A stretch of 64,000 nt of DNA from Promethearchaeota archaeon (GCA_016839555.1 JAEOUA010000011.1:1-64000); one strand, 5' to 3'. Counted from the first letter of the stretch, positions 1-19,633 are shown. The notes: generated by a model not told the origin, from the letters alone. Numbers and translations: made by a program.

Positions 1-1
1 A

Positions 2-1429
2 AATATCTGTAGCCGATTCATCACCTTCTTCCTCGCCTGAAAAAATAACGTCTGCGACATTTGAGATACTATAAGAACCCGACCAACCAGAAGGTCTTCC
101 AAGAAATAGATAAGAATAGCCGCGATCTGGACCACCAGTTCCTGGAGCTCCGACAAGTAAGTCATCATAAGTATCGTTATTCACGTCTCCTATCCGAGCA
201 ATGGAAGTTCCCATATTTTCTCTATATTTATTCCCAGTTATACCCATATCTATATTGGATGAAAGCGACATATCCATCGACCATCCTGTCGCTTTTCCTA
301 ATATTATGTATAATTTTCCTGCATCTTCAGCTCCATCATCATTGGCTCCTGCACCAATCGCAATATCAGCGAAACCATCTTTATTTAAGTCTCCGAAAAT
401 GGTTGCTGCCGTTCCAGAGCTATCACCATTATTCTCTCCAATAAATGAAGCATTTACATTCGATAAATCTACATCCTTTTGCCATCCAGATTTTCGTCCA
501 AATATTAAATACGTTTGTCCTTTATAATTATCATACCTTCGACTGGCAATAAGAATATCATTATAATCATCACCATTAATGTCACCTATTGCTTTTTCAA
601 GATCGAGACCTATATTATCATCTGGATTCTCACCCCTAAATGAGGCATTTACTGTAGAAAGTGGGGTATTCATCGTCCATCCCGATGATTTCCCTAAAAT
701 TAAATATACTTTTCCGGCATCTGTTCCCCCATCATCATTCTTTCTTGCTCCAATTATAAAATCATCGTAGGTATCGTTATTTACATCTCCAACGCCTGCT
801 AAATTAGTTCCGGCGCCATCATTATTATTTTCCCCATAAAAAGAAGCATCTGCATCTGATAAATTCATCTCAATTGACCATCCAGACTTTTTCCCAAAAA
901 ATAAATAACTCTGACCTCTTCCACTTCCATGTGTATCATCACCAGGTATCCCAGCAAGAATATCATCAAATCCATCTCCGTTGACATCTCCAACACCTTT
1001 TACATTCATACTGGTTTTATCCCAATCTGGTTCTTCTTTTAAAGTTACATTCGCATTAGTTACATTCATATTCATTTCTAAAGTTATATTGGATCCAAAG
1101 AAGATATACGCTTCTCCATAAAAATTAGTAGTTCTATTTACATAGCATGCAATAAGAATATCATCATAGCTATCACCATTGACATCTCCTACAATATCTA
1201 TATTCTCTCCAGCATTTCTTTCTGCTGCCTCACCAATAAAAGAGGCATCTGCATCGCTTAGACTGATCTGAGTTCCAGCAGATTTAATGCTTGAAGTTTG
1301 AATGGTGCGTCTCGAATAAACGGTATCCACTTGTACCTGCATAACGCTTGTTATTGAGATCATACTCAAGATAACAAATAGCAATACCACATGTTTTAGT
1401 GTTTTCTTATTAGGTATTTTTAAGTTCAT
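2..1429 (-). CDS. FG-GAP repeat (integrin-alpha-like beta-propeller) exported protein; runs off left edge
   Basis: Not in ORF track (no stop in window). Manual translation: MNLKIPNKKTLKHVVLLFVILSMISI (signal/TM), then repeats GDVNGDSYDDILIA, GDVNGDGFDDILAG, GDVNNDTYDDFIIGA, GDINGDDYNDILIA, GDLNKDGFADIAIGA, GDVNNDTYDDLLVGA with G.xYxFFG segments. Confidence 0.9.
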   Translation of the reverse strand, partial: MNLKIPNKKTLKHVVLLFVILSMISITSVMQVQVDTVYSRRTIQTSSIKSAGTQISLSDADASFIGEAAERNAGENIDIVGDVNGDSYDDILIACYVNRTTNFYGEAYIFFGSNITLEMNMNVTNANVTLKEEPDWDKTSMNVKGVGDVNGDGFDDILAGIPGDDTHGSGRGQSYLFFGKKSGWSIEMNLSDADASFYGENNNDGAGTNLAGVGDVNNDTYDDFIIGARKNDDGGTDAGKVYLILGKSSGWTMNTPLSTVNASFRGENPDDNIGLDLEKAIGDINGDDYNDILIASRRYDNYKGQTYLIFGRKSGWQKDVDLSNVNASFIGENNGDSSGTAATIFGDLNKDGFADIAIGAGANDDGAEDAGKLYIILGKATGWSMDMSLSSNIDMGITGNKYRENMGTSIARIGDVNNDTYDDLLVGAPGTGGPDRGYSYLFLGRPSGWSGSYSISNVADVIFSGEEEGDESATDI

Positions 1430-1770
1430 AGTTTTTATAATAATTTTTTTAATTTAGATAAAAATTTATTTTTCTTATTACATAAAAATTGATTTGTCTT
1501 TTAAACAAATAGACATGATGCTATATAAAACTTTCCCTTTTATCGGAAGCTTAATATACATTACCTAGTCTATTAAATATATATCTATAGCAATATATTT
1601 AAAGAAACAATTTTCTTTATTTTGAAATTTTTAGTATATCTAATATCCTCTTGTATTTAAATGAAAAAATAATTATGCCACTCTAAAAAAGTTTTTACAA
1701 AATTTACAAAATCAAATTTATTCAAAATGTGTTTTCTAATAAAAAATAATATAATAAGGAAGAAAAAACC

Positions 1771-2199
1771 TCAATTTTTAAATGATTGTTTATCTATTTC
1801 TATACTCATTTTATTCATTCTATTAATGGTTTCCTTTAGGTTATTAAGTGCTATATGGGGAAATAGCATACTTATGTAATCTACGAATATTTCGCTGAAT
1901 TCTTTAATTACAAATTTCAATGTAAGCTTCCCTATATAATTCAATTGATCATCTAATAATTGTGTACCCGTAATTAGATATGATGTTTTTTTGGTAATAC
2001 GACGTCTTCGAGGAGAAAACAATTTTTTAATAGAGGTTTCTTTTTCCATATCTTCCAGATATTTTTTTAATGACTCCTTGGAGAGCGGGAAAGTTTGCAA
2101 TAAATCTTTTTTAGTATGATTATCCACTCGAAGTTTGTTAAAGGTAGAAAAAATCTTTAATATTTTCTCATATTCAGCTCTTATATTTTCAAAGTTCAT
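1771..2199 (-). CDS. hypothetical protein (ATG 2199 preferred to TTG 2214)
   Basis: Open frame, basic protein, no recognised motif. Confidence 0.55.
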   Translation of the reverse strand: MNFENIRAEYEKILKIFSTFNKLRVDNHTKKDLLQTFPLSKESLKKYLEDMEKETSIKKLFSPRRRRITKKTSYLITGTQLLDDQLNYIGKLTLKFVIKEFSEIFVDYISMLFPHIALNNLKETINRMNKMSIEIDKQSFKN

Positions 2200-2286
2200 G
2201 TTTAAATATCTCAACTCTCTAATATTAATTTATATTTAGTTATCATATTTTCAAAATTCATGTTAAAATACTTCACCTAAGATTTG

Positions 2287-2308
2287 ATTAGGTAATTAAT
2301 TACCCAAT
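2287..2308. promoter_or_regulatory. near-palindromic putative operator, copy 1 (ATTAGGTAAT-TA-ATTACCCAAT)
   Basis: 19/22 identical to the perfect palindrome at 2421-2442. Confidence 0.55.
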
Positions 2309-2420
2309 TTTTCTTTTCTATATAAAGGAAAAATCACTAAATCAACTTGATCATAATATGGAAAATAGGAAGAAGAGATTTTTTTTCTTCATTTCTTGTG
2401 GACTAAATTTTGATGAAGTC

Positions 2421-2442
2421 ATTAGGTAATGCATTACCTAAT
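2421..2442. promoter_or_regulatory. perfect 22-bp palindrome, putative operator copy 2 (ATTAGGTAATGCATTACCTAAT)
   Basis: Self-reverse-complementary; lies in divergent intergenic region. Confidence 0.6.
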
Positions 2443-2797
2443 CGTCATTTTTTGCCATCGCGAAGGCAAACCAACAAAAATATTTAAATATATGACTATC
2501 TTAATAATATTCATAATAAAGAGATAAAAGACTCTAAAAATAACATCCATAACTTAGGATAAAAGAACCTATGTAATGGGAGAATAAGAATAAATTTGCA
2601 ATTAGTTCAATTTAGGTTAGATAATTTAGAAGTATTTCCAGATTGTAAAACGCAGCGATTTATATTATACAAAAAATCAAGATATTCCATCATCTTTGAA
2701 TTACATTTTCCTCATTTTTTGTTTTCTTGTTTAAATAGGCATAATAATAGTTTTAGTAACTATAGAAATAATCATAAATTAGAGGTAATACGAAATT

Positions 2798-3766
2798 ATG
2801 GAAAAACAATATTCTAAAAGAAAGGTTCGTCGCAACGCAGGAGTGATTTTAATCCTCTTTTCTTTATGTGTTTTACCGCTCATTATGAGTATCCCTTCAC
2901 TTTTGCAAACTCAATCTCCCGAATTTACTTTCCTCGGGATTGATCGGGATAATTCCCAACAAGGGTTTAGTAGTGATTTTGGACCTTTTGAAAACATAGG
3001 AGAGTTATCCATAAATGACTTGATTATTACTCAATATGAAGACAGCATTGGGTTGGGTGAAAAGTCTCGCTTCATTTATAATATTTTTCCTTTCAATCCA
3101 CTTGAGGATGAGCAGCATATTCCACAGAATCCTTACGGAAATAATCTTTTTAGTTTTAAAATCCCGACGGTATTCAAGTATGAGAAAAAGCAAGGAACTA
3201 CCACTCGTAATAAGGTTTTAGATTTGAGTACACTAAATCTTATTCCTGGGATATATAATGTGTTTGTTACCTATGCCAAATCCTCTCTACTCTCTTTCCT
3301 ATACGGGTTCCATCGAGCAGAACCTCAGCAATATATCCTTAAGCTAACAAAAGATTATGTAAGATTGATGGGTAACCCTCTCTTAAATAAGGATGATATT
3401 GCATTCGGCAATGTATATACCATTGAAAATGCTCAAAATTCATGGGATGTGCATTACGAGGGCTATTTGTTAAATTCGAAAAATGAACCCCTGAAATATA
3501 AAACAATAGAACTTTTTTTGGAAAAGCAAAACCACTGGGTTAGTGTGGGTAAAATAATTACTAACGAATATGGCTATTTCCATCATGTGGAAAAGGTGTT
3601 TGGTTCATTTGAAGTGAACAGTTTGGCAAAAATAATATTCGAAGGAGATGTGTGCTATGAGCCTCTAGAGCTTATTGAATACGCGGGTTTAGAAACGGAT
3701 CTTGGCACGGGAGAATCCTTGTTAAAAAATATCCTTGTTAAAAAATGCCCTCCCATGCTCACTTAA
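2798..3766 (+). CDS. exported/membrane-anchored beta-rich protein; probable N-terminal fragment of a giant protein
   Basis: Basic N-terminus + hydrophobic helix (KRKVRRNAGVILILFSLCVLPLI); Ig/CnaB-like pattern GYLLNSKNEPLKYKTIELF...TNEYGYF; ends right after a 16-bp tandem duplication. Confidence 0.7.
   Translation: MEKQYSKRKVRRNAGVILILFSLCVLPLIMSIPSLLQTQSPEFTFLGIDRDNSQQGFSSDFGPFENIGELSINDLIITQYEDSIGLGEKSRFIYNIFPFNPLEDEQHIPQNPYGNNLFSFKIPTVFKYEKKQGTTTRNKVLDLSTLNLIPGIYNVFVTYAKSSLLSFLYGFHRAEPQQYILKLTKDYVRLMGNPLLNKDDIAFGNVYTIENAQNSWDVHYEGYLLNSKNEPLKYKTIELFLEKQNHWVSVGKIITNEYGYFHHVEKVFGSFEVNSLAKIIFEGDVCYEPLELIEYAGLETDLGTGESLLKNILVKKCPPMLT
3715..3746 (+). repeat. perfect 16-bp tandem duplication (ATCCTTGTTAAAAAAT x2)
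   Basis: 3715-3730 identical to 3731-3746. Confidence 0.9.
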
Positions 3767-3854
3767 GTCAATATGAATATTAATCCCAAAACCAAAATAT
3801 TTCTGTGTGGCCTTTAAATGATAATCTACTTTTTCCAAAATTATTTTGCGATAA

Positions 3855-6800
3855 TCGAAGGAAATCCCTGAGCTCTTCATCGGACTGGATTTCGATTATA
3901 CCAACATCGATTACGAGCAATTTACCACCGCACTCTACACCTATAATGATTATCCTTTCTACACCTATTATCATAAAGGGTTGGCTGGAATTCCCAAATG
4001 GTCTGATCCCTATCAATATAACACTTTAGGCTACGTGGAACAGAAAATTACGGGAGCCAGTACCGTTATGAACGCCATTTTTGGGGATGCAGAACCCATC
4101 TTAGATGAAATTCGACCTATTAGTTACGATGGTGCGATTCGATATATATTCGAGAAGCGCTCATATTCCTCTCCCGCTTCACCATTATTCCAGCCAATTG
4201 TGTTAAGTGAACCGAGATATAACCTCCTCAAAAAGCTCGGAATAGTGTCTCCGGGACATTTAGGCATTATAGTAAAGCATACAAGCTCATCAGGCTCTTT
4301 GGGAATGAACCCTTACTGCCTTACAAGAGCAGAAAGTCTACAATACGGGGCAAAGATTCCCTTAGCCTTCAATAAAACCTTCGGATATCCCATCATTTCC
4401 ATCTCACTTGCCATTAAGCAAGGAGGTCGCACCATAGATACCATTACTATTCCCGAAGAAATGTATGAAGTGAAAGGAGGGGATTTACTCCTTACTTCCT
4501 CTTTAGAAGACCTAGCTGAAACTTCAGATAAGTATAAGGTATTTATAGGCTCTGATACGGAGAGCCTTCCTTCCAACATGTATTATCAAATGGAAGTGGT
4601 ATTCCATCGCTTCGTTCCGCTTACCCCAGAATACGAGGGTTTAGCATTAGCCCAAGTGGGACACTATGCGGTCATGGACCAAATTCACCAGTACACCTTT
4701 GCGGAGATTTCCAGCAATATGATCGCCGAGATCGGCTACACCGAAGTGCTCACCATGCTTTCTACCCTAGCGTCAGCACCCGCCATGATTTTTTACTCCT
4801 ATGCATCATTTAGGGCAGAACAACAGGCAGAAACACAAGTGCTTAAAGAATTTATAAAAGGAATCCATGAAGTGCTATTCAAAGCATTTGTAGTAGCTCC
4901 AATCTCGGAAACTATTGAAGAACTCACCATCGATGTAATTCTGGAGGGGCTTGTTGAGGGATACCTGCGAGAATGGGGCTTTTCGGATAACTTCGGGCAG
5001 TGGTGCTCGCTCATTGCGACCAGCATCCGGGAGGGCGTGAGCCTCAGTAATCGGATTGATAGTTCCATTAAGCATAAGTCAAAAGCAAAGTTTGATTTAG
5101 AATCAAAAGTAGGCAAAATAGAATCCCAACTGAAATCGCAAGATCTTAACTCCGAACAAAAGCAAAAACTTCAAGATGAAAAGCTGGGACTTGAATCGGA
5201 AATAGCGACTCTTCAACAGAAGATCGATAGTAAGCTAGCCATACGCGACGCCCTTAAATTAGTGTCCAGTGTAATGTTCGCGGCTGCCTCCATGGGATTC
5301 GGCGGACTTTCTCTGGGAGGGATGTCCAGTCTTATCAGTACCTCCTATGATCAATTCGTCAAAGAACCACTTCATAATGCGCTCTTAAAGAACTCCAAAA
5401 AACGGACGATTGGGTATCAACTCGGACAAATCAATGCAAAAATTGACAAACTTCAAGAGAAAATGGAAACCCTCGATACCGATTCCAAAAAGTATAAAGA
5501 CTTAGAAAAAACCTATTATCACCTGATATATGAGCAAAATCAACTAAATGCCCTTAAGGAGCAGATTGCCAAGGCGTCCGATATATCGCAAAACATTAAT
5601 TCTGAAGTATTGGATGAAACGGGTTCCATAGAACTTTCTCAACAAGAAACCGAGGTGCGCCTGAAACTTAAAAAACTTTCTAATTTAGGAGGAAAATATG
5701 GAAAAGAATTTAACATACGAGCATGGGCTGATTATGCGCTTTCTCTTGATGAAGTTCAAGCACAAGAAAAAATTCAAGCTAAAATTCTTGAGTATAAATA
5801 CAATGAACATCGTTTAACTTTAGAACAGCGCAAAGATCACATCGAAAAGGAAATCCTCCTTGCTAAATATACCTTACAAGCAAATGGAGATCCTGTTAAT
5901 GCTCGTTATCTAGACATGATGGGAACAGTATGTACCGATCCTATGGTATATGCCACTCCTCGAGATAGAAGTCTCTTAAGGGATTTTTCTACCGGTGTTC
6001 CCAAACAAGCTCAAAATGCTTTTGTAAAACTCGATGGAGCGTGGAAAGATTTTGATACTCCCCAGATGCGCGCCTTATATGAGTTAGAAACTGGTAAGGA
6101 TGCAACTGGATTTGATAATCGATACAATCCACCACAAATAAAGATTGAACAAGAATATAAAAAATGGATATATAAGAAAGTAACTGTACAAGGATCCAAT
6201 ATAGCATTCAGAGTTCCTGCCATGATCATTAAAGAAGGGGAATCACATACAAATGATATTATTGACTATTGGAGAAGTAAATTGTACGATATGGATAAGA
6301 TTCATACTAAAGAAAGAATTATTGGTGAGAAAATTGAATTTGAATTAAAAGTTATCGAGCCTAATGGTAGAGTATTCACTTTTTATGAATTTAGCCATAA
6401 AGATATTGATATTTCTCAATTTATTGCGGATGAAAATATAAAATTTCCTATTTTTCAAATTCAAGAGCGAACCGATACCGTTAAATTTGAGAGAACACCT
6501 GCATGGGATCAAATGATCGAAGACGCATTAGCAATAAAGAAATCTGGTGGAGATTATCCTTTTGGTAAAGATAATCCTGCCTCCCCTATGCGAGATGAGC
6601 TAAATACTATGCGTGACAGATTAATGGTACTTCTTAATCATATGGTCTATAGTAATACCAAAGTAGATATTAATTCTTATAAAAAATTATATGCAAAAAT
6701 GGGAACAAGTCAAAAAGCATTTGAAGCTATTATCGGTAAATGCGCTAAAGGGTATAATAAGAAAGTTGATGATGCGGGTAATACAGTTTTTCATCCTTAT

Positions 6801-9089
6801 TTCGGTCCTAATCAAGAAACAATTGCAAAATGGGAAGCCAATATTATTAAAGATATTTATTTGGATTCACATCTGAAAGATAAATCTTCTAAAGCACAGC
6901 TTGTAAAGGATTTCTTTAATCCGTATTATAAGATGATGGGCATGGATTATGATAATGACTATTATTTGGATGCTTATCGCTTTCTATATACTCTTTCTGC
7001 TTATCTTTATGAAAAGGGTTATATTAGTGGTGCTGAACCCAAACAATTGGAAAAGGAATTTTCATCTGTTTTAGGAGAAAGTCATGACTTAACGAAAGTT
7101 TATAATGATTTGAAGGATGGAGAACATGAGTTGCCACATTCAGAAATTATTTTAAAGATTTTCCAATTATCAATAAAACTAATTCAAAAAAAAAGTGGTG
7201 CTATAGAAGATATAGAAATTCTTGATTTAATCAGAAGCAGAAATGGAGAAGATTGGAATTCTAGACTTTTTAGTTCTCCTGCTGTGGTTAGAAATCTTAA
7301 AAGTGAAAATTCTGTTTACAAGGAAAGCGCGTTTGGGCGATTTCTCATCGACCTTGTAGATGACGATTCTTTTCGCAGTGTTTTTATTCTACCGTTCTTA
7401 GAATATAAGGGTATTGATATTTTAGACCTTGATTTAGACATTGATTTGGAGCAAACAATTCGTAGAATTTCAAAATTACTTTTTGGAAAAGAAAGATATA
7501 TATATCAAAATCCTTCAAAGCCAATAATATCAAAATTAATGGAAAGTTTATATCGTATTCTCACTTTAAGTCAAAAGGATTTAGGTTATAATGTCCCAGA
7601 AGATAGGTTAAGGATCATGAAAGAGAATTATATTACAAAGATTCATAATTTTATAAAAAATAATGAAATAAGAATGGGAACTCCTAAAGGTTTCGATCTA
7701 GCTACTTTTGATGAAAATTCTTTTATTAATACTAAAGTGGATGTTTTCATTTATGTCTATTTATCATATCTGGTTCACAATAACATTTACTATGCTCCAA
7801 TTGAGGATGTTACTTCTTTAATGCCAAGTTTAATACATGGTTTAGATATTTCGAAAACTAGTTCTTTGCCTACTCTTAAGGGTACTGTCGATGAGATTGT
7901 GTCTTATATTGATGCTAATATAAAAAGTTATTATTCTTCAGATATTTCATATGAAGAATTTGCCATGAAAAACGATATCTATCAATTAGCAATTCACTAT
8001 CTAAATAAATACATAAATGATTTTAAGTTTAAGCAAAAGTCTGATACAAGCTTCTCTTTTAATTACGAGTATACTTCCATCGAACAATTAATAGCACATT
8101 CGAAATATATGTCAGATGAAGTTTTTGAAAATCTAATAAATCAAATTTTTTCTGCAGAAAAAGATAGTAAAAAAGCTTTAGGATTATATAAGAAACTTTA
8201 TGCGGAAGATCCTGGAATCGACAATATTTTGGCCCCTTCTTTGCTAACTAGTGCCGAAATGACAAAATTTGATGGAATTACTACAGATCATTTTAAAGAG
8301 TTCATAAAATTCTATAAAAATAAAGGTTATAAATTATTTGATTCTGGAAAAGTATCTTCTTCTAGTGAGGATATTTCCAAAAGTTTCATAGAGTTAATTG
8401 AAAGAATACAAGAATATGCATTCTATGACTCAGATATAGAAAGCCATACACATCCCACTTCTTATGTGGACACCGCGGAAATTCTTAGATCCATGGGGGA
8501 ATATTTAGCTCATGAAAAACCCAGTTTGGGTAGGGCGCAAGTCAGTCAAAATTCTTATCGATATTGGAATGGAAAAATTGATCTTTATTTGCATGAATTA
8601 AGCGGAAATAACGAATTTGCGATTCGCGATTTTAAACCTCGATGGGATGCAGATACTGGAGGTGATTTAAACTCTCATTTCATTAATACTTTTGCCCAAG
8701 TAATTGTGTATTGTCTCATTGAATTGGCTGCTTTAGAACAGGGAGTTGATATGAGTAGTGAAGAGATCACAATGCTCGGAGGTGTGTTCAATGAAAAGGT
8801 TGCAGTAGAATTTGATCCTAAGAGAATGTACATATTACTCTTCGATCTTTTGTTGAATGTGGAAAGTTCAGAATGGCATGATCATTTAGAGAAAGATATT
8901 GATCTGAGTTCTGATTATGAAGTTGATTTACCGGATATTTATAAGATGTTTTTCATTGATTGCTGGCAGATAGGAGATATTAAAGCCTATCTGGAAGCCT
9001 CCGGTTATACCGAAGCCCAAATCAGTGAGTATGAAAGTAAAATAGAGGAACTTCAAACAGAGATTGGGGATATAACCTCACCGCCTTAA
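3855..9089 (+). CDS. giant protein with coiled coils, hydrophobic helices and C-terminal RecB-type PD-(D/E)XK nuclease; putative polymorphic toxin, probably 5'-truncated
   Basis: Track ORF 3981-9089; the frame stays open upstream to a TAA at 3852-3854; GKIDL (8571), DFK (8628), QVIVY (8697). Confidence 0.7.
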   Translation, partial: SKEIPELFIGLDFDYTNIDYEQFTTALYTYNDYPFYTYYHKGLAGIPKWSDPYQYNTLGYVEQKITGASTVMNAIFGDAEPILDEIRPISYDGAIRYIFEKRSYSSPASPLFQPIVLSEPRYNLLKKLGIVSPGHLGIIVKHTSSSGSLGMNPYCLTRAESLQYGAKIPLAFNKTFGYPIISISLAIKQGGRTIDTITIPEEMYEVKGGDLLLTSSLEDLAETSDKYKVFIGSDTESLPSNMYYQMEVVFHRFVPLTPEYEGLALAQVGHYAVMDQIHQYTFAEISSNMIAEIGYTEVLTMLSTLASAPAMIFYSYASFRAEQQAETQVLKEFIKGIHEVLFKAFVVAPISETIEELTIDVILEGLVEGYLREWGFSDNFGQWCSLIATSIREGVSLSNRIDSSIKHKSKAKFDLESKVGKIESQLKSQDLNSEQKQKLQDEKLGLESEIATLQQKIDSKLAIRDALKLVSSVMFAAASMGFGGLSLGGMSSLISTSYDQFVKEPLHNALLKNSKKRTIGYQLGQINAKIDKLQEKMETLDTDSKKYKDLEKTYYHLIYEQNQLNALKEQIAKASDISQNINSEVLDETGSIELSQQETEVRLKLKKLSNLGGKYGKEFNIRAWADYALSLDEVQAQEKIQAKILEYKYNEHRLTLEQRKDHIEKEILLAKYTLQANGDPVNARYLDMMGTVCTDPMVYATPRDRSLLRDFSTGVPKQAQNAFVKLDGAWKDFDTPQMRALYELETGKDATGFDNRYNPPQIKIEQEYKKWIYKKVTVQGSNIAFRVPAMIIKEGESHTNDIIDYWRSKLYDMDKIHTKERIIGEKIEFELKVIEPNGRVFTFYEFSHKDIDISQFIADENIKFPIFQIQERTDTVKFERTPAWDQMIEDALAIKKSGGDYPFGKDNPASPMRDELNTMRDRLMVLLNHMVYSNTKVDINSYKKLYAKMGTSQKAFEAIIGKCAKGYNKKVDDAGNTVFHPYFGPNQETIAKWEANIIKDIYLDSHLKDKSSKAQLVKDFFNPYYKMMGMDYDNDYYLDAYRFLYTLSAYLYEKGYISGAEPKQLEKEFSSVLGESHDLTKVYNDLKDGEHELPHSEIILKIFQLSIKLIQKKSGAIEDIEILDLIRSRNGEDWNSRLFSSPAVVRNLKSENSVYKESAFGRFLIDLVDDDSFRSVFILPFLEYKGIDILDLDLDIDLEQTIRRISKLLFGKERYIYQNPSKPIISKLMESLYRILTLSQKDLGYNVPEDRLRIMKENYITKIHNFIKNNEIRMGTPKGFDLATFDENSFINTKVDVFIYVYLSYLVHNNIYYAPIEDVTSLMPSLIHGLDISKTSSLPTLKGTVDEIVSYIDANIKSYYSSDISYEEFAMKNDIYQLAIHYLNKYINDFKFKQKSDTSFSFNYEYTSIEQLIAHSKYMSDEVFENLINQIFSAEKDSKKALGLYKKLYAEDPGIDNILAPSLLTSAEMTKFDGITTDHFKEFIKFYKNKGYKLFDSGKVSSSSEDISKSFIELIERIQEYAFYDSDIESHTHPTSYVDTAEILRSMGEYLAHEKPSLGRAQVSQNSYRYWNGKIDLYLHELSGNNEFAIRDFKPRWDADTGGDLNSHFINTFAQVIVYCLIELAALEQGVDMSSEEITMLGGVFNEKVAVEFDPKRMYILLFDLLLNVESSEWHDHLEKDIDLSSDYEVDLPDIYKMFFIDCWQIGDIKAYLEASGYTEAQISEYESKIEELQTEIGDITSPP

Positions 9090-9232
9090 TTTTTTAAATT
9101 TTAATTTTTTTTTAAAGATTTTTTCTTGATAATTTAAAAAATTATAAAGGAGGAAAAAGTTTTTATAACCTCATCATTATATACCTCAAGAAGGAAAAAC
9201 CAAATTTAAATTGAAAACCGAATAATTCGCCT

Positions 9233-10291
9233 ATGGAGTTAAAACAAATAAGCCAAGAGGAGTTAAAATTAATAAAACAATTGGAGAGAGAAACCCATAT
9301 AAGCTCAAGAAGAATCAAAAAATCCTCGGATCGATTTACAAAATATTATTTTAGTTTTGGCGTTTCTGATGGTCATGTAACCCTTCTCTCGTTTTATAAT
9401 CTTAATTTAAAATCCTTTCCAAGAACTATCTTAAAATTTAAGCATCTCTCTGTTTTAGATTTAGAGGGCAATCCCGATGTAATACTGCCCCCAGATTTAT
9501 TACATCTTAAATCGCTTAAGGAATTACGGTTAGCATATTGCAATTATGATACTCTTCCTGATTTCTTTTCGGAATTTAGAGCACTTGAAACCTTAGATTT
9601 ACATAGTAATAAATTGCTTGAAATACCTTCCCAAATAAAGGAGCTAAATACATTACAACAGCTATTCTTAAATGGAAACTCCATAGAAGATATTGGCAAT
9701 GAGAAACCCAATTGTTCTGGATTATTAGAAATATCTCTGAGTAGTAATAAAATCACTCATTTCCCAAACTCTTTATTAAAATTGCTAAATTTAAAATCCC
9801 TCAGTTTAAAATATAATGCCATACCTTCAATACCTTCATCCATTAGCAGACTTTCTTCCCTTGAAAGACTCTCTCTCTCTGGAAACGAGTTAAAATTTTT
9901 GCCCGATTCAATCGAAAAGTTAAGCAAACTTCAAGTCCTTGGACTGGATCACAATAAATTGTGTTATTTACCTTCGAAAATAGGAAATCTAACCCGTCTA
10001 ACATATTTAGATGCTTGCGTGAATAATCTAGAAACATTACCGGATTCAATCTGCAATTTACAAAAGCTAGAATCCTTAATATTAGATGTTAATAATCTCA
10101 AGGAACTTCCAGCAAATTTTACCAACCTTAAAGCTCTCAAAATCTTAAATCTTGATAAAAATCCGAATCTGAAATTGACTCTACCCCAAGAAAGGTTTGT
10201 GAAGGCAGTTAAGCAAGAGTATTGGCGCAGATGGGGGGAGTCAGCAAAAAAAAAATTAGGGAAAATGCGTGAAGATCTTGGGGAAACATAG
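9233..10291 (+). CDS. leucine-rich repeat protein
   Basis: About 11 LxxLxLxxNxLxxLPxxI repeats. Confidence 0.92.
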   Translation: MELKQISQEELKLIKQLERETHISSRRIKKSSDRFTKYYFSFGVSDGHVTLLSFYNLNLKSFPRTILKFKHLSVLDLEGNPDVILPPDLLHLKSLKELRLAYCNYDTLPDFFSEFRALETLDLHSNKLLEIPSQIKELNTLQQLFLNGNSIEDIGNEKPNCSGLLEISLSSNKITHFPNSLLKLLNLKSLSLKYNAIPSIPSSISRLSSLERLSLSGNELKFLPDSIEKLSKLQVLGLDHNKLCYLPSKIGNLTRLTYLDACVNNLETLPDSICNLQKLESLILDVNNLKELPANFTNLKALKILNLDKNPNLKLTLPQERFVKAVKQEYWRRWGESAKKKLGKMREDLGET

Positions 10292-11582
10292 ACCATCGAA
10301 GGCAATCATATTAGCAGCAGGAGAAGGTACAAGACTTAAACCAATTACTTCTTCTATCCCTAAACCAATGATCCCTCTTGCTGGAAAACCACTTCTGGAG
10401 CATAATATTTTAGGTTTAAAAAACGCGGGGATTAATGAACTATTAATTATTGTTGGTTATAAAAAGGAACTCATTAAAGGTTATTTTAAAGACGGACAAA
10501 AATTTGGTTTAAGGATCGAATATATTACTCAAGAAGAATATCGTGGTACGGCTCATGCAACTGGATATGCTAAAGAATTTGTAAGGGATGATACTTTTCT
10601 AATGATGTATGGTGATATATTTGTAGATCAAAAAGCTTTCCAAGAAATCATAAAAAACTTTGAAAAAAGCAAAGCTGATGGCTTAATTTCTTTGTTAAAT
10701 GTGGATAATCCTCAAAATTATGGAATTATAACTCTGGATTCTAAAAATTATGTTAAAGAGATCATAGAAAAACCATCACTAGACAGAGAGGTAGGAAACC
10801 TTGCCAATGCAGGAATTTATATTTTTCCATCATTAATTTTTGATGCAATTGATGAGACTACGCTGTCAAAAAGAAATGAATACGAACTTACGGATTCTAT
10901 TGAAATTTTAATAAATAGCTATAATAAACACATAATTGGTTATATAATGAGAGATATTTATTGGAATGATATTGGCTTACCTTGGCAGTTATTAGAAGTC
11001 AATGAATATATATTGAGTACACTAAAAAGAAAAATAGAAGGCAAAATTGAAAAGAATGTCATTATTAAAGGAGATGTATATATTGGTGAAGGAACCATTG
11101 TAAAGTCAGGAACATATTTAAGAGGGCCTTGTTATATTGGAAAAAAATGTATCATTGGACCAAATGCATTCATACGACCAAGTAGCTCTATTCAAAATAA
11201 TTGTCATATCGGTATGAGTGAAATAAAGAATTCTATCATCCTTTCTAATACAAATATCCCACATTTCAATTATATTGGAGATTCTATTATCTGTGATAAT
11301 GTAAATTTAGGAGCAGGAACAAAAATAGCGAATCTAAGATTTGATGATAAAACTGTGAAAGTTTCTATTAAAGGAACTCGAATTAATTCCCCGAGAAACA
11401 AGTTAGGAGCGATAATAGGAGCAAATGTAAAGACCGGGATTAATGTTAGTATTATGTGTGGAAAGAAAATTGGAGAAAATGCTCGAATAGGTCCTCATAC
11501 TCTTGTTCTTGAGGATGTCCCAAAAGATGTCCTATATTATCATGATCCGAAAAGTGGGATAATCAGAAAAGAATTGAAATAA
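10269..11582 (+). CDS. glmU: bifunctional sugar-1-phosphate nucleotidyltransferase/acetyltransferase (archaeal GlmU-like)
   Basis: ILAAGEGTRLKP, PKPM motifs; C-terminal hexapeptide repeats, HFNYIGDS. Confidence 0.85.
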   Translation: MKILGKHRPSKAIILAAGEGTRLKPITSSIPKPMIPLAGKPLLEHNILGLKNAGINELLIIVGYKKELIKGYFKDGQKFGLRIEYITQEEYRGTAHATGYAKEFVRDDTFLMMYGDIFVDQKAFQEIIKNFEKSKADGLISLLNVDNPQNYGIITLDSKNYVKEIIEKPSLDREVGNLANAGIYIFPSLIFDAIDETTLSKRNEYELTDSIEILINSYNKHIIGYIMRDIYWNDIGLPWQLLEVNEYILSTLKRKIEGKIEKNVIIKGDVYIGEGTIVKSGTYLRGPCYIGKKCIIGPNAFIRPSSSIQNNCHIGMSEIKNSIILSNTNIPHFNYIGDSIICDNVNLGAGTKIANLRFDDKTVKVSIKGTRINSPRNKLGAIIGANVKTGINVSIMCGKKIGENARIGPHTLVLEDVPKDVLYYHDPKSGIIRKELK

Positions 11583-11721
11583 TATCTTTTCTTCTGAAAA
11601 TTTTATAAAATGACGATTCCCTCAAGCGTTATATTAATCCTATAATCAAACAAAATCTTAATTTATAGCATAATATTTATAAAACTAATTAACAAATTGA
11701 AAATGGTGAAATGTTAATTTT

Positions 11722-13200
11722 ATGAATTTTGATGATTTTGAGCTAATTTATCGAGAGAATAGAGTTGAAATCAAGGATAAAGAAAAAATTGTAGAAGAAT
11801 TAAAAAACAAAATTGGAGAGAAAAATGTTTCAACAGAAAAAATTGATATTTTAGCATATACTAGGGATACTTCTTTAATCTCACTTAATTGGACCATAGA
11901 GGGAAAACTGGCAGGTCTTCCGGATATAATTACGTTTCCTGAAAATATTGCTCATATAAAAGATATTTTAGAAATTGCTAATCGTGAAAAAATCCCAATT
12001 GTCCCTTTCGCAGAAGGTTCTGGGGTAGTTGGAGGGGCCATTCCCCTTAGAGGCGGAATTATTATCGATATGAAGCGATTTAATAAAATTTTAGAGATCA
12101 ACGATAAAAATCTCACCGTGACAGTTCAAACAGGGGTAAACGGAATGAATTTAGAGCGCTATTTAAATGCCAAAGGATATACGGGTGGACATATCCCCCA
12201 ATCTTTATATACTTCTTCAGTAGGAGGATGGATTGCTCATAAAGCTGCAGGTCAGTTTTCTACTAAATACGGTAAAATCGAAGATATTGTTCTAGGAATG
12301 AAAGTTGTGCTCCCAACTGGAGAACTTATTACTTTTGATCCAATAGCAAGAGCTGCCACTGGCCCGCAATTGGATAAATATTTCATAGGAAGCGAGGGAA
12401 CTTTAGGAATTGTAACTGAAGCGACTTTAAAAATATGGCCTTATCCAGAAAAAAGAACCTTAGTTTCGTACACATTTCCAACCATTGAAGAATCATTAAA
12501 TGCAACACGACAGATTATGCGTGAAAATGTATATCCTGCCGTTATCAGAATTTATGATGCCGATGAAACTATGCGGCATTTTGAAAATACTGAAAAGGCA
12601 AAAGATAAAGTAATGACTGTGTTTGTGTGTGAAGGAAATCAAAGATTGGTAGATTTAGAAGAGCAAATTACTCGAGAAAAATGTGAAGAAAATTCGGGAG
12701 TTGATTGCGAAGAAGAACCTGTTGAACATTGGTTTGAAACACGATTTAGAGTCACTGAAACTTCCATGTTTCCCCCATATAAGATTGTCGCAGATACGAT
12801 TGAGGTCTCTGTTATGTGGGATCGAGCGGCAGAATTATACCATTCTGTTGTTGATGCAACCAAAAAAGTAGAAGGAAATCTTTTAGTAAGTGCTCATGTC
12901 TCTCATTTCTATCCTAATGGAGTGGGTTTTTATTTCACATTTGGAGGTGTCCCGGGAAAGGAAAAGTCGCAATTTGACTTTTACAAAGAATGTTGGGATG
13001 CCACAATTAAAGCAACATTAGAAGCAGGAGGTTCTATTTCACATCATCATGGTATCGGCATCAATAGAAGTCATTGGATGAAAGAAGAATGGGATGGGGG
13101 TCTCGAGATTATGCAGAAATTCAAAAAAATCTTAGATCCAAATAATATATTTAATCCAGGAAAGATTTATGAGAAGACTTGGAAAGGAGGAAATGAATAA
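11722..13200 (+). CDS. FAD-linked oxidoreductase, alkyl-DHAP synthase (AGPS)-like
   Basis: GHIPQS, GGW..AAGQFSTKYG, GSEGTLGIVTE, SHHHGIG, DPNNIFNPGK. Confidence 0.85.
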   Translation: MNFDDFELIYRENRVEIKDKEKIVEELKNKIGEKNVSTEKIDILAYTRDTSLISLNWTIEGKLAGLPDIITFPENIAHIKDILEIANREKIPIVPFAEGSGVVGGAIPLRGGIIIDMKRFNKILEINDKNLTVTVQTGVNGMNLERYLNAKGYTGGHIPQSLYTSSVGGWIAHKAAGQFSTKYGKIEDIVLGMKVVLPTGELITFDPIARAATGPQLDKYFIGSEGTLGIVTEATLKIWPYPEKRTLVSYTFPTIEESLNATRQIMRENVYPAVIRIYDADETMRHFENTEKAKDKVMTVFVCEGNQRLVDLEEQITREKCEENSGVDCEEEPVEHWFETRFRVTETSMFPPYKIVADTIEVSVMWDRAAELYHSVVDATKKVEGNLLVSAHVSHFYPNGVGFYFTFGGVPGKEKSQFDFYKECWDATIKATLEAGGSISHHHGIGINRSHWMKEEWDGGLEIMQKFKKILDPNNIFNPGKIYEKTWKGGNE

Positions 13201-13202
13201 AA

Positions 13203-14543
13203 ATGGAAGAATTAAAAAAGTATAAGTGGATGATTCCCCTTATCTCGGGAGCAGAAAGACATGTAAGAAGAAAACTCTTAAATAACCTTCGAAAAAAGAA
13301 GGATCATTTTTATCCGGAAGGAGATTATAACGCTGATGTTAAAAATCTGATTAATTGCATGCTTTGTCCAAATATGTGTCGATTTGATTGCGGAACCCTT
13401 CAAGCGGCAGGTAAAGAAACAATCGGGCCTGCATATAAATCCCGGATTGGATATTTACTCACAATAGGAAAAATCAATCCCGAAGATCCTGAAAACAAAG
13501 AATTTATTGATTTAATGTATAAGTGTTCAAATGAAGAAAATTGTAAGATATGGTGCCCTTTTGATTTTTCCGTTGTTTCATTGCTGGAAACTGTGAGAGA
13601 TGATATAAATGAAAAGGGATTAATGCCAGACTACTGTAAAGAACAAATTAAAAAACTAAAAGACACGGGGACTATAGAAGACTATAATATTTTCAAAACC
13701 TATGAAGAGAAAAATATAGAGAATATTAATACTAAAGGTGATGATGAAGTTTTCTATTATATTGGCTGCGAAACGATGAAATTTCCAGAAGTGGTCCAAG
13801 CCAATATAGAAATATTAAAGCGGGCAGGTGTTAAGTTTTCAACAAATTTAGATGAACGAGTATGTTGTGCGGCGCCAGCATTAAATATAAGGGATTTTGA
13901 CACGGTTAAACAACTAGCAGATAAAAATATTGAATTAATCAAAAAAACAGGATCAAAAATAGTTGTTTCTGATTGTCCTGGATGCGTTCATGCTCTTACA
14001 AAAAGATATCAACAAACAGGAACAGTAAATGGAGAATATATTCGTAAGGAACGAGTAAAGGAGGTAACTGAACTTCCAGGAGATTTCTCACGCAATATAT
14101 TCGAAGATGGTCCCGAAGTGATTCATATCGTCGAATATATTAAACGTTTGGTTGATCAAGGTTCTCTAACTTTGAAAAATGTTCCAGAAAAATATCAAAC
14201 GGTCACAATTCACGATCCTTGTCTCTTAGCAAGGAATTTGAATGATATTGAATCCATTAGAGCTATCCTTAACGCGATACCAAATTTAAAGATAAGTGAA
14301 CCGATTTATAATAAAGAAGATACTCATTGCTGCGGGTGGAGTGGAACAGTTCATTGGGCAGATAAAGAAATTGCTATAAAGGAATCTGAAAATAGGATTA
14401 AAGAATTAAAAGATTCAGGATCAGATATAATCATAACTGCTTGTCCAACCTGTGAATTAGGTTTAGCTTATGGTATCGATGAACAGGAAAAAAGTAAAAT
14501 TGAAATAATAGATCTCTCTGAATTATTAATGAAAGCTTTATAA
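13203..14543 (+). CDS. Fe-S / CCG-domain oxidoreductase subunit (GlpC/HdrD-like)
   Basis: CxxCPxxC, YYIGC, CC, SDCPGC, HDPC, CCG, ACPTC. Confidence 0.85.
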   Translation: MEELKKYKWMIPLISGAERHVRRKLLNNLRKKKDHFYPEGDYNADVKNLINCMLCPNMCRFDCGTLQAAGKETIGPAYKSRIGYLLTIGKINPEDPENKEFIDLMYKCSNEENCKIWCPFDFSVVSLLETVRDDINEKGLMPDYCKEQIKKLKDTGTIEDYNIFKTYEEKNIENINTKGDDEVFYYIGCETMKFPEVVQANIEILKRAGVKFSTNLDERVCCAAPALNIRDFDTVKQLADKNIELIKKTGSKIVVSDCPGCVHALTKRYQQTGTVNGEYIRKERVKEVTELPGDFSRNIFEDGPEVIHIVEYIKRLVDQGSLTLKNVPEKYQTVTIHDPCLLARNLNDIESIRAILNAIPNLKISEPIYNKEDTHCCGWSGTVHWADKEIAIKESENRIKELKDSGSDIIITACPTCELGLAYGIDEQEKSKIEIIDLSELLMKAL

Positions 14544-14569
14544 TATTATAAATTTCTTTTTTCTTTTAG

Positions 14570-14610
14570 GTTTGTTTTAAGTTTGTTTTAAGTTTGTTTT
14601 AAGTTTCTTT
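14570..14610 (+). repeat. 11-bp tandem repeat GTTTGTTTTAA x3 plus partial copy
   Basis: Direct reading; T-rich intergenic region. Confidence 0.8.
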
Positions 14611-14725
14611 TTGAAAAAAACCTAATATTTCTATAATTTATTATTAAGTGAAAGTTATTTAAATTAAAAAATTTAAATTTAAAATAAAAATAAAAATAAA
14701 AAAATAGTATAAGAGTGAATTAATA

Positions 14726-16180
14726 ATGTTATTACTAGTTTTTGACTGCGGAACGACTGGTACGCGTTCAATTTTATTTGATATTAATGGAAAAGAAGTT
14801 TCTAGGGCATATGAAGAATATCAGATTCCACAACAGCCTGTTGGCATCTCAGAACAAAATCCGATTATATGGTGGAATGCAATAAAAAATACTTGCAACC
14901 AAGCAATAAAGAATAAGAATATAAATCTTGATGACATAATTGGAATATCTGCTGCGTTCCATCGTGCAACTACAACGCTCATTGATAAGAATGGAGATAT
15001 TTTACTTGATGCATTAACATGGATGGACGAAAGAGAATCCACTAGTTTCGAAGGATTTCAAGAAGAAGGGGGATTACGGAGAATAATTCCAAAATTAATC
15101 TGGATTAAGAGGAATAGACCAGAGATATTTGATAATGCATCTAAAATTATATTCCCTGACACATATACTTACATGAAGTTATGTGGAAAAGAGTTATGCG
15201 CTACAGATCCAACAAACGGTATTTATGGGATTATGAATAAAGAAACATTGGACTGGGATGAAGGTCTTGGTGAACAATTTGGTTTACCCGTGGATCTTTG
15301 GCCTGAGCTACGTAACCCAGGTGAAATCATTGGTGAATTAACAAGCGAAGCCGCAAAAGAACTTGGTTTAAAAGCAAACATTCCGATTATACAGGGAGGT
15401 GGAGATCAACAATGTGCATCCTTAGGAATGGGAGTTATGGATAAGGGGCAAGCGAAAGTTACGACGGGCACAGGCACGTTCGTTGATGTTTGTACTGGCG
15501 ATGAAATAATCCAACCTGTTGGAGATTTTCCAATTTTTCCATTACCTCACGTCATTAAAGGTAAGTGGTTTCTAGAAGGTGTGATGCCTGGTACTGGAAG
15601 TATGTTACAAACATATGCGAGAAACTTTTCACAGTTACAAATTAAAGAAAGTGAAAATGTATATGATGTTTTAACAAAAGAAGCGGAACAAGCCCCCCCT
15701 GGGAGCAATGGCTTACTATTTGTCCCACTTTATATTTTTAGGAAGGGGACAATTCACGGTTTGGGATGGCATCATAATAGAACACATTTCGCACGAGCAA
15801 TTATGGAAAGCGCTGCTTTAAGTGCGAATATGTACTTAGGTTTATTAGAAGGAATGGCAAAAATTAAATTAACTGAGTTAAAATCTGATGGAGGCGCAAT
15901 GAATTCTGACTTTTGGGCACAGATATTCGCAGACATTATAGGAAAGAAGATATTAGTCCCTGAAAATAGAGATGGTGCTGCCTTAGGAGCCGCAATATTA
16001 GGATTTCATGGAACTAAGTCTTATGGAAGCTTTGATGACGCAATAGAGAAAATGGTTCGATTTGAAAAAGAGTTTAATCCCATAAAAGCGAATTCAAAAA
16101 TTTACAAGAAGCTTGTGCGAGTATTCATGCCACTAGTGCTAAAAACAGACGAGGAAAAAAGAGTAACCAAAGATCTTTAA
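14726..16180 (+). CDS. FGGY-family carbohydrate kinase
   Basis: DCGTTGTR, GGGDQQ, TGTG, DGG, GAALGAA. Confidence 0.9.
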   Translation: MLLLVFDCGTTGTRSILFDINGKEVSRAYEEYQIPQQPVGISEQNPIIWWNAIKNTCNQAIKNKNINLDDIIGISAAFHRATTTLIDKNGDILLDALTWMDERESTSFEGFQEEGGLRRIIPKLIWIKRNRPEIFDNASKIIFPDTYTYMKLCGKELCATDPTNGIYGIMNKETLDWDEGLGEQFGLPVDLWPELRNPGEIIGELTSEAAKELGLKANIPIIQGGGDQQCASLGMGVMDKGQAKVTTGTGTFVDVCTGDEIIQPVGDFPIFPLPHVIKGKWFLEGVMPGTGSMLQTYARNFSQLQIKESENVYDVLTKEAEQAPPGSNGLLFVPLYIFRKGTIHGLGWHHNRTHFARAIMESAALSANMYLGLLEGMAKIKLTELKSDGGAMNSDFWAQIFADIIGKKILVPENRDGAALGAAILGFHGTKSYGSFDDAIEKMVRFEKEFNPIKANSKIYKKLVRVFMPLVLKTDEEKRVTKDL

Positions 16181-16380
16181 CAAATTTTTACTTAATTCAA
16201 AAACTGAAGAAACTTAAGCGTGTAACCAAAAAATAAATAGGGATTATCAAATTAGTTAATTATATAAGGAGACTAATTCTATTATGAATATATAAAGGTT
16301 TTCTAGGCGATGACTAGAGGCTTTGTGGATTTCATCTAATTTAAGATGAGAATATAGAAAAAGAAATATACTACTTAGAT

Positions 16381-16611
16381 GATGTTATTGGAAAAAAGAT
16401 TTTAGTACCATAAGTCAAAGATGGAGCAGCCTTAGGAGCTGCCTTTATAGCGGGATTAAAAACTGGTTTTTGGAAATCTAAAGAATATATTAAGAATTTA
16501 TACAAGGTTGGCGAGGTTTATAAACCACAAATCAACGAAAAGGAACGAAATACATTATATGAAACATGGAAGGATATAGTCTCAAGATCTCTAAATTATG
16601 TGAAAATCTAA
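16381..16611 (+). pseudogene. FGGY/glycerol kinase C-terminal fragment with internal stop
   Basis: DVIGKKILVP*VKDGAALGAAFIAGLKTGFWKSKEYIKNLYKVGEVYKPQINEKERNTLYETWKDIVSRS; TAA at 16411. Confidence 0.8.
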
Positions 16612-16875
16612 ATTGAAACATCGTCAATATCCATATTATTTTTTTTTTATTAATTTTTTTCTAAGCTCTTACGAAGTTAGATTCCATATTTTTTTAATTC
16701 TATTTCTAATTGTTTTCTCATCTACATTAATTCTTTCAGCAATTTGTGATATGGAATACATTTTAATTTGTAAACTCTTATTGTTTTAATTAGTAAACTC
16801 TGATTATAAACAATTAAAAACAGAGTTTGAGAAAAGAAAAAGTCCTTAATTCGCAAGAGAACAATCAGTACCTAT

Positions 16876-17799
16876 TTATTTTGGAAAATTAAACAATTTT
16901 CTTGCTTTATCAACTGTCCCAGAATCAAAGTTCCTAAATAAAGCATAAGCAGCAATCGGTACAACACATCCGCAATTTTCACATAATAGGGGTGAATTTC
17001 CCATGACACAAAACTTTTGTCTTCCATCTGGATAGAAACTTTTTATTTGACCGACTTTGAATACACAATGTGGCACAAATTCTTTTGACAGGTATAATTC
17101 TAGCATTTTTTTTGAATAAAAAATGAAATTTCCATATTTACTCATTACTTTTAGAATGCTTTTTATTGCCTCTCTTAACATCTCTCCTTTTAATATTAAA
17201 GGGTCGTGAGGATAACCCGTATATAACTGAAAAACAAGCCCAGATGCACCATTATCATGAGCAATTTTAGCAATATCCTCAATTTCTTTATAATTCAGTG
17301 TCATTATGGCAGAAGTGACAACAGGATGGAATTCCCGAATATTTTTTAAGACTTTATCAAAAACCTTCGCACACCTTATCTTGTCATGAGTTTCCTTAGT
17401 TCCATCTAAACTCACCCAATATTTTGGTTGTTTTTGCCCCTTAAATCGAGGTAATTTCATGACTCCATTTGAGACTACTTGGACTGAGGAGAAAATTTTA
17501 ATTGCTTCTTTTATAAGGTCTGTTCTTAAAGTAGGTTCTCCACCGGTTAAGATGGCTATTTTTGTTCCTAATTTTTTATGGTATTTAAAAATCTTAATCC
17601 ATTCTTCGTTCGATAACTCTTTTCTTTTACTATTTAATTCCGTTGTTGAGGAGAAAAAGTAACAATGTTTACATTTTAAGTTACATTGCCAAGTTAAATC
17701 ATAATTCACATAGAATGGAACCTTCCTTAGTATCGATTTTAAAAAGGAAGGAGCCATGGAAATAAAACTTATTATATTCTTCACTTTAAATAATCCCAT
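16876..17799 (-). CDS. radical SAM protein
   Basis: CNLKCKHC, TGGEP, SNG, VSLDG; Cys-rich C-terminus. Confidence 0.9.
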   Translation of the reverse strand: MGLFKVKNIISFISMAPSFLKSILRKVPFYVNYDLTWQCNLKCKHCYFFSSTTELNSKRKELSNEEWIKIFKYHKKLGTKIAILTGGEPTLRTDLIKEAIKIFSSVQVVSNGVMKLPRFKGQKQPKYWVSLDGTKETHDKIRCAKVFDKVLKNIREFHPVVTSAIMTLNYKEIEDIAKIAHDNGASGLVFQLYTGYPHDPLILKGEMLREAIKSILKVMSKYGNFIFYSKKMLELYLSKEFVPHCVFKVGQIKSFYPDGRQKFCVMGNSPLLCENCGCVVPIAAYALFRNFDSGTVDKARKLFNFPK

Positions 17800-18412: not shown

Positions 18413-18682
18413 ATGAAGAACGAAAGAGAATTCTACAGAAAATCAAGCCTCAAAGGTATTAAAATTATTTTAAGCGATTCTGTATATGAGATTCAAAAAC
18501 AAGATATATACTATTTTGATTCATTCTATGGAAAAAGAACGAGATGGGAAACGATATATATATTAGAAGCAGAAGAAAATACTCCCTTCACAGAAGAACA
18601 GAAAAATACTTTTATGGAACACTTGCTTAATATCATTCACGACGACGGACGGTCTCAAGTTGATATAAAAAAATTCACCTGA
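18413..18682 (+). CDS. hypothetical protein
   Basis: 89-aa ORF, ATG start, followed by T-tract. Confidence 0.5.
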   Translation: MKNEREFYRKSSLKGIKIILSDSVYEIQKQDIYYFDSFYGKRTRWETIYILEAEENTPFTEEQKNTFMEHLLNIIHDDGRSQVDIKKFT

Positions 18683-19596: not shown

Positions 19597-19633
19597 TAAC
19601 AAAAATTAATATCTTTTAAAAAATCTAAAAATT

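Follow-up and report, generated by a model that had tools for sequence, protein, structure and literature searches.

A survey of bacterial polymorphic toxin systems described toxin tips of the REase fold that carry the residue series E, D, ExK, Q and Y, together with an immunity class built of leucine-rich repeats (LRR), Imm-LRR; for Tox-REase-7 the immunity partner is a solenoid (HEAT) protein, no repeat-type immunity class is widely used, and classical polymorphic toxin systems are rare in archaea (Zhang et al., 2012; PMC3482391). In the Asgard archaeon Heimdallarchaeum, giant genes without an explanation have been reported, as has an element that combines LRRs with a homing endonuclease (Wu et al., 2022; PMC8813620). 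Here we examine a gene pair in a stretch of 64,000 nucleotides from a Promethearchaeota archaeon (GCA_016839555.1, JAEOUA010000011.1:1-64000; hereafter the window): P0002, which encodes a protein of 1702 aa ending in a nuclease-like tip, and the LRR gene P0003 that follows it. A preliminary description of this DNA had proposed that the two represent an Asgard polymorphic toxin and its immunity protein. Comparison with relatives leads us, on balance, to favour reading the locus as a 5′-truncated member of a family of giant modular effectors that is restricted to Asgard archaea and resembles polymorphic toxins, with a putative toxin/antidote arrangement.

The conserved part of the protein, the trunk, corresponds to aa 1-600 of P0002 (positions 3981-5780; invariant columns in alignment A2). 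A profile of the trunk (A2) retrieved 197 representative clusters from 1.84 billion proteins, 53 of them at E ≤ 1e-30. Members are up to 7,406 aa long, and the trunk mostly lies 700-1,700 aa from the C-terminus. Within the phylum the family was found in 29 of 301 genomes, 25 of which belong to the window's own family (68 genomes); there are one to four copies per genome, lying within open frames of up to 12,000-20,600 aa, and one member carries the NCBI name Promethearchaeota archaeon. The Asgard origin that had been proposed for the system is therefore borne out, the family being almost confined to one Promethearchaeota (Loki-type) family. Its loci are patchy, multi-copy and non-syntenic, and the neighbouring genes differ between them. 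In P0002 the trunk consists of a beta-rich part (aa 1-250), a first hydrophobic helix (aa 257-272, 4749-4796), an acidic helix with E310, E314, D318 and E322 (4908-4946) and a Gly-rich hydrophobic segment (aa 427-453, 5259-5339). Database searches gave little for these proteins as a whole: the long N-terminal bodies of family members showed no Pfam domain, no Pfam trafficking domain was found in the family, the middle region of P0002 matched nothing in Pfam, PADLOC or PHROGs, PHROGs gave no match to any part of P0002, PADLOC matched none of six proteins, and an Atlas feature search of the trunk returned scores of 0.78 or less. We found no paper on this trunk family.

Three copies are present in the window's own genome: P0002, P0013 on contig C4, and P0012, with which contig C7 opens. 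The C7 locus (L008, C7:1-4076) begins inside the P0012 trunk, where the assembly apparently breaks in a repeated gene family. The P0012 tip is composed of a zinc ribbon, which matches phage endonuclease families, and a nuclease-like domain; the gene that follows encodes 142 aa and is not an LRR gene.

Downstream of the trunk the proteins diverge rapidly. In close pairs of members the trunk is 79-86% identical, the middle 25-30%, the tip 19-42% and the downstream LRR gene 32-40%; between two of the organisms concerned, ribosomal protein S4e is 93% identical. The same pattern holds for P0002, the trunk of which is 74-79% identical to those of its relatives P0006 and P0007, with identity falling sharply after aa ~580 and a mostly helical, fast-evolving middle region (aa ~600-1469, 5781-8387, from pairwise identities) leading to the tip. 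Comparison of C-termini among trunk homologues, which the preliminary description had called for, showed that the tips vary: the last 330 aa of 89 members fall into 45 BLAST clusters, the largest of which is RecB-like (n = 9). Pfam assigned LAGLIDADG_3 to three tips, with P0030 above threshold (30.4 bits against a cut-off of 22.5), and the toxin-deaminase family PF14424 to two (1.9e-6), and matches to GIY-YIG, NADAR, PRTase-CE and APOBEC-like domains were also obtained. Motif searches by regular expression (deaminase, LAGLIDADG, HNH) were uninformative. On contig C4, an inverted, tip-only frame of 480 aa on the minus strand adjoins P0013 and its LRR gene. This tip has no trunk, is 28% identical to the P0013 tip, with which it shares an HHW motif (HNH-like), and is followed by its own LRR gene, 38% identical to P0014. 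The pair (contig C4 ~298,078-300,420; L009:12079-14001 and beyond) is an orphan cassette of the kind known from bacterial toxin loci.

A change in base composition accompanies the change in conservation. The G+C content at third codon positions (GC3) of P0002 is 0.40-0.48 in the trunk and drops between 5355 and 5655 to 0.19-0.23, the level of the neighbouring genes. Six other loci (L002, L003, L008, L009, L010 and L011) show the same step, with GC3 across them of 0.36-0.54 in the trunk against 0.17-0.33 in the rest of the gene and its neighbours. The step is possibly a trace of recombination or gene conversion in the conserved part.

The partner gene diverges along with the tip. An LRR gene lies directly downstream of the giant gene in 12 of 28 judged loci (the window, L002, L003, L009, L010, L011, L012, L014, L020, L026, L030 and L034), and in six of the eight with a RecB-like tip; LRR linkage among homologues is thus as had been predicted. 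Since there are only about 20 places with LRRs in the whole 3.7-Mb genome, this linkage is not random. Orthologues of P0003 follow five other RecB-tipped relatives (alignment A6), and the spacer between giant and partner gene measures 39-186 nt in seven other loci. LRR genes are found with RecB-like, HNH-like, LAGLIDADG and other tips, which implies that the LRR protein is the usual partner of the family and is not bound to one tip fold. A second type of partner, a small protein of ~126-155 aa with a common K-I-R-x-x-L-R motif, was observed in five of the 28 loci (L016:14684-15064, and frames just 3′ of the giants in L017, L019, L027 and L031); P0169, the only one read throughout, carries a zinc ribbon at its C-terminus. 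P0003 itself (9233-10291, plus strand, 352 aa; Pfam LRR_14 3e-28 and LRR_8 2e-25) has no signal peptide. Co-folding of the LRR protein (A6) with the tip (A4) gave a score of 0.00 against a mark of 0.32, a result that counts neither way.

We next consider the tip of P0002 (aa 1470-1702, 8388-9086; alignments A3 and A4). The motif GKIDL-x14-DFK-x20-QVIVY occurs with exactly the spacing claimed for it and supplies D1534 (8580-8582), D1550 (8628-8630), K1552 (8634-8636), Q1573 (8697-8699) and Y1577 (8709-8711), to which E1512 can be added as a further key residue. The last ~230 aa of P0002 align with the C-termini of nine other members at 18-32% identity, and in this alignment of 10 C-termini there is no variation at D1534, D1550, K1552, P1553 and Q1573 and very little at G1531 and Y1577 (Y1577 being shared by at least 90% of the sequences); E-x-P is often seen further upstream. 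Because D, DxK-P and Q are retained across 10 otherwise so dissimilar sequences, the motif is not a chance occurrence. The profile search of the C-terminus suggested in the preliminary description returned PDDEXK_1 (PF12705) for three of the nine relatives' tips (best E 0.0024), but these matches are sub-threshold, P0007 scoring 13 bits against a gathering threshold of 22 bits, and P0002 itself had no match; by score the tip is not a member of Pfam PDDEXK_1. DUF2800 (Cas4-like) gave sub-threshold matches to two of the nine tips, whereas Pfam Tox-REase models gave none even at E up to 10. A PDB profile search with the tip reached the RecB active-site region at E = 1, and phmmer against the PDB found nothing relevant. 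When A4 was aligned with three PDDEXK_1 proteins of related genomes using hhalign, the D, DxK and Q..Y positions were superimposed (E 0.031).

Structural prediction points in the same direction. An AF2 model built from the 10-sequence alignment had a predicted local distance difference test (pLDDT) value of 72.8 and a predicted template modelling (pTM) score of 0.73; one from a 3-sequence alignment (pLDDT 42) was too poor for use. In the model D1534, D1550 and K1552 are on strands 2 and 3 and Q1573 and Y1577 in helix 94-119, an order of strands and helices that positions the motifs as in PD-(D/E)XK enzymes. The best Foldseek rows were Cas4 SSO0001, MGME1, ACE1, AdnAB and RecB (E 0.02-0.2), and VIA-align gave Cas4 with Z 7.3 (root-mean-square deviation 2.2 over 90 residues), AddA and RecB with Z 7.0 and Exo5 with Z 6.8. 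The top structural matches are all nucleases of this clan, with Z ≤ 7.3 and so under the tool's clear level of 8. Since these individually non-significant scores agree with one another and with the invariant motif, we predict with good confidence, from motifs and weak fold and profile matches, that the tip is a RecB/Cas4-like PD-(D/E)XK nuclease, in line with the RecB-type tip originally proposed. It is not Cas4 proper, as it lacks the Fe-S Cys quartet: no Cys column is invariant, or nearly so, in A3 or A4.

The most distinctive property of the family concerns the asparagine-linked glycosylation motif N-x-S/T (x not P). Downstream of the trunk, 153 members together contain seven such sites, compared with 521 expected by composition. 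The shortage is specific to this pattern, as shown by the control counts over the same regions (S/T-x-N, 445; D-x-S/T, ratio 0.94; Q-x-S/T, ratio 0.99), with N-x-C at 1 versus 16. Sites occur in positions 1-250 of the trunk profile and stop from 250, at the first hydrophobic helix; from there on the trunk has one site against 115 of the reverse pattern. In the far N-terminal bodies of the largest members observed/expected is about 1.1-1.25, no clear excess over chance. A further 16 loci, taken from related genomes, gave one site against 148 expected, though this set is not fully independent, since at least one of them, L031, has a tip identical to a protein of the first set. Genome-wide the ratio is 1.01 (1,785 open reading frames, ORFs), and among the 156 ORFs with at least five expected sites a ratio below 0.15 was found only in the three family copies. 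The only site of P0002 is at aa 131; aa 250-1702 (4728-9086) are free of the motif, where 8.0 sites are expected (P = 3e-4). LRR partners do not avoid the motif (22 sites versus 31.7 expected; three versus 3.6 in P0003). A gene for an STT3/AglB oligosaccharyltransferase is present in the genome. In a cytoplasmic region such sites should be neutral, suggesting that the tail encounters the glycosylation machinery on the outer side of the membrane and has been selected to remain unmodified. As the one line of evidence on this point, the avoidance argues that the post-trunk tail is exported, and in this respect, for the tail, it supports the claim of a giant exported protein; an exported yet unmodified tail would be what is expected of cargo that enters another cell. 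Glycosylation-site avoidance of this kind is a trait for which we found no precedent in the literature.

The copy in the window is shorter than its relatives. Only P0006 and P0007, both from JGI metagenomes, are homologues of near-equal length among 5.8 billion proteins searched, and both carry an extra 225-290 residues, including a hydrophobic hairpin, N-terminal of the point where homology to the window starts; one relative has about 5,700 aa upstream of the trunk. The reading frame of P0002 is open from 3855 to 9089 on the plus strand (1744 codons), in DNA of 31% GC where an open frame of 5.2 kb is beyond chance, and its first canonical start codon, TTG at 3981, defines the coding part of 1702 aa (3981-9089). 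When the N-termini of P0006 and P0007 were compared with the window by tblastn, homology was found to start at 3861, directly after a stop codon at 3852-3854, so that 40 homologous codons (3861-3980, 91% identity) precede the first possible start. Because homology ends at this stop and the upstream part seen in relatives is missing, P0002 is, as judged by alignment, a 5′-truncated copy of the giant family. The window is the start of contig C11, and the truncation point lies 3.8 kb inside it; the truncation is therefore not an assembly edge. P0002 may be an orphan cassette kept in store, or else a short form translated from TTG 3981, with the helix at aa 257-272 as signal anchor. At another locus, an ORF just upstream of the giant P0058 (L014:4984-5949) shows homology to modules that lie inside the N-terminal part of nine other giants, indicating that some giant genes are split or frameshifted in the assemblies.

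The ORF that precedes P0002, P0001 (2798-3766, plus strand, 322 aa), does not supply the missing part. Its strongly hydrophobic N-terminal segment (signal anchor) agrees with the signal-bearing ORF noted earlier, but the role of export domain given to it does not stand: P0001 has no homologue in 5.8 billion proteins, no paralogue in its own genome and no likeness to P0006, P0007, any family member or any fetched locus. As an orphan unlike the N-terminal modules of the family, it was rejected as the missing N-terminal or export module and is best regarded as a neighbour outside the system.

With regard to the layout of the locus, the ORF positions given in the preliminary description (2798-3766, 3981-9089 and 9233-10291, all on the plus strand) are correct, as are the ORF of more than 1,700 aa, the hydrophobic and Gly-rich stretches, the LRR identity of the next gene and the T-rich gap and glmU overlap. 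The gap (9090-9232, 143 nt) contains T runs and TATA-like words, and the GlmU-like gene (10269-11582; NTP_transferase 1e-52) overlaps the LRR gene by 23 nt. A second LRR gene in the window (30105-31058, plus strand) has an N-terminal double zinc ribbon and no adjoining giant gene. Both the window (2-1429, minus strand; nine N-x-S/T sites against 5.9 expected) and L010 (2615-3052, minus strand), which comes from another assembly, have a divergent gene for an FG-GAP-repeat surface protein upstream of the giant. Two tandem direct repeats of 62 nt, 77% identical, occupy 2151-2274 at the 5′ end of a minus-strand ORF (1771-2214), and a 23-nt inverted repeat (2286-2308 and 2421-2443) is found nearby.

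Taken together, the conserved trunk, the variable C-termini and the LRR linkage uphold the proposal of a polymorphic toxin, which has to be amended in that P0001 is not its export domain and the window copy is truncated. The toxin/antidote layout of the family is present; poisoning and protection would follow by analogy with the bacterial systems. Several observations weigh against this interpretation. P0002 has no start codon at the point where its relatives extend upstream, and it may be inactive. Complete members have no N-terminal signal peptide and their hydrophobic segments are only moderately hydrophobic, and no known secretion system or processing protease was found near the locus. The nuclease assignment draws on sub-threshold matches, the tip of P0002 itself having no match to Pfam PDDEXK_1 at E up to 10 and its structural matches staying below Z 8. 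The closest relatives keep a RecB-like tip that has diverged and has not been swapped, and the variable unit is ~1,100 aa in extent, with no small tip behind a sharp pre-toxin motif. Finally, 11 of the 28 loci have neither type of partner (by a crude screen), and the LRR gene follows at least four or five sequence types of tip and so, by this comparison, shows no specificity for a single fold.

How such proteins might act under the favoured reading can be sketched. In full-length relatives the very large N-terminal body, with N-x-S/T at about the expected rate, would be displayed on the cell surface, and the first trunk helix would be the point at which export of the chain begins. The chain beyond this helix might stay free of N-glycans for passage across a second membrane, or for folding only after delivery. 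The Gly-rich helix and the helical middle could aid entry into the neighbouring cell, where the nuclease would cut DNA, while in the producer and its kin the cytoplasmic LRR protein would bind and block the cognate tip. Homologous recombination in the GC3-rich, conserved trunk would swap the unit of middle, tip and LRR gene. A more far-reaching proposal, which we put forward tentatively and hold to be rather less than evenly likely, is that the family is a contact-dependent delivery machine peculiar to Asgard archaea and unrelated to the bacterial type V, VI and VII secretion systems. In it a giant surface stalk with N-glycosylation sites would bear a membrane-inserting trunk, and this trunk would export a glycan-free cargo of 1,100-2,300 aa, made of a helical entry module and an enzyme tip, into neighbouring cells, with LRR proteins as the main antidotes.

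Other functions can be envisaged for the same architecture. LRR domains are classic sensors, and the giants could be intracellular, membrane-anchored proteins of defence or abortive infection in which the LRR, in an NLR-like manner, senses a foreign or viral protein and releases the nuclease or other effector tip against DNA in the same cell. The diversity of effectors (nucleases and deaminases), the fast evolution of tip and LRR, the missing signal peptide and the patchy, multi-copy, non-syntenic distribution all fit an arms race with viruses or a defence locus; a cytoplasmic tail would, however, have no cause to avoid N-x-S/T (ratio 0.01 compared with 1.01 genome-wide), and it is mainly this avoidance that makes the explanation less favoured. 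In addition, no PADLOC family was matched, known defence proteins do not resemble bodies of 5,000-20,000 aa in which N-x-S/T is about as frequent as expected, and orphan tip-LRR cassettes are a trait of toxin loci. We consider intracellular defence improbable.

Slightly less probable still is a selfish or mobile element, akin to the aloposons and HeimM2, in which homing-type endonuclease tips (LAGLIDADG, GIY-YIG, HNH-like and PD-(D/E)XK) spread or maintain the locus. The tip families are indeed those of homing endonucleases, the neighbours vary between loci, and Asgard mobile elements with giant genes, and one with LRRs plus a homing endonuclease, are on record (PMC8813620). Yet housekeeping genes lie directly downstream, 20 kb of sequence contained no tRNA gene, no element-like terminal repeat stood out within 12 kb (integrase genes were not part of the screen), no trunk relative was found in IMG/VR viral contigs and P0002 matches no PHROG; moreover, homing would leave both the lack of N-x-S/T and the deaminase tips unexplained. 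The least probable explanation, to our mind, is a structural or adhesive surface protein for cell contact or protrusions, with the LRR protein as a cytoplasmic assembly adaptor and a nuclease-like domain that is inactive or degrades extracellular DNA. The huge bodies of relatives, with their N-x-S/T sites and Ca-binding-like motifs, the FG-GAP surface protein gene adjoining two loci and the lack of a recognisable secretion system or immunity family would suit such a role, which is at odds with catalytic residues that are invariant across highly diverged tips, with the replacement of tips by other DNA- or base-modifying enzymes, with a partner gene that diverges along with the tip region, and with the existence of orphan cassettes.

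We found no paper on a polymorphic-toxin-like family of this kind in Asgard archaea, which belong to a domain where the classical systems are reported to be rare. The family, with its uncharacterised scaffold, is common in one Promethearchaeota family, and some of its open frames are among the largest in archaea. The absence of N-x-S/T may serve as a marker, readable from sequence, of a protein part that is exported yet unmodified, and could reveal delivered effectors in any archaeon that N-glycosylates. Should the LRR genes be antidotes, they would be a prokaryotic parallel to the LRR-based inhibition of nucleases in eukaryotes; and the tentative delivery machine, should it exist, would give the archaeal relatives of eukaryotes their first known inter-cellular weapon and would count as an early case of LRR solenoids being employed to inhibit nucleases, raising the question of whether Loki-type archaea fight each other or their syntrophic partners.

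The family can be compared with several described systems. With the bacterial polymorphic toxin systems CdiA-CT/CdiI, Rhs and MafB (PMC3482391) it has in common a protein of very large size, conserved in one part and ending in exchangeable tips directed at nucleic acids, as well as a partner gene directly downstream, orphan tip-partner cassettes and several copies per genome. In contrast to these, no known trafficking, repeat or pre-toxin domain could be matched to the Asgard trunk, middle or body; a signal peptide and markers of two-partner, type VI or type VII secretion are lacking; the variable unit extends over ~1,100 aa; and the tail, in an Asgard host, is devoid of N-glycosylation sites. 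Like Tox-REase-1, -6 and -7 (PMC3482391), the Asgard tip has E, D, (D/E)xK, Q and (Y) at the C-terminus, but its nearest families are PDDEXK_1 and DUF2800, both sub-threshold. The order of catalytic motifs is that of RecB, AddA, Cas4, Exo5 and MGME1, the best structural matches of the tip, and the fold may be theirs as well; the tip differs from these nuclease domains in its sub-threshold scores, in having no conserved Cys quartet and in being fused to an apparently exported giant and not to a helicase or CRISPR module. The aloposons of Ca. Heimdallarchaeum (PMC8813620) are likewise unexplained giant genes of Asgard archaea, some of them near LRR or endonuclease genes, whereas the window, compared by gene layout, has one gene of 1,702 aa in place of tandem giants of 3,000-6,000 aa, no tRNA gene in 1-20000 and no MinD/ParA-type genes upstream. 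The LRR partner, lastly, may be likened to Imm-LRR (PMC3482391) and to the vertebrate ribonuclease inhibitor, where an LRR solenoid is encoded beside a nuclease or acts against one; unlike Imm-LRR in bacteria, LRR genes are here the commonest partner and occur with several sequence types of tip.

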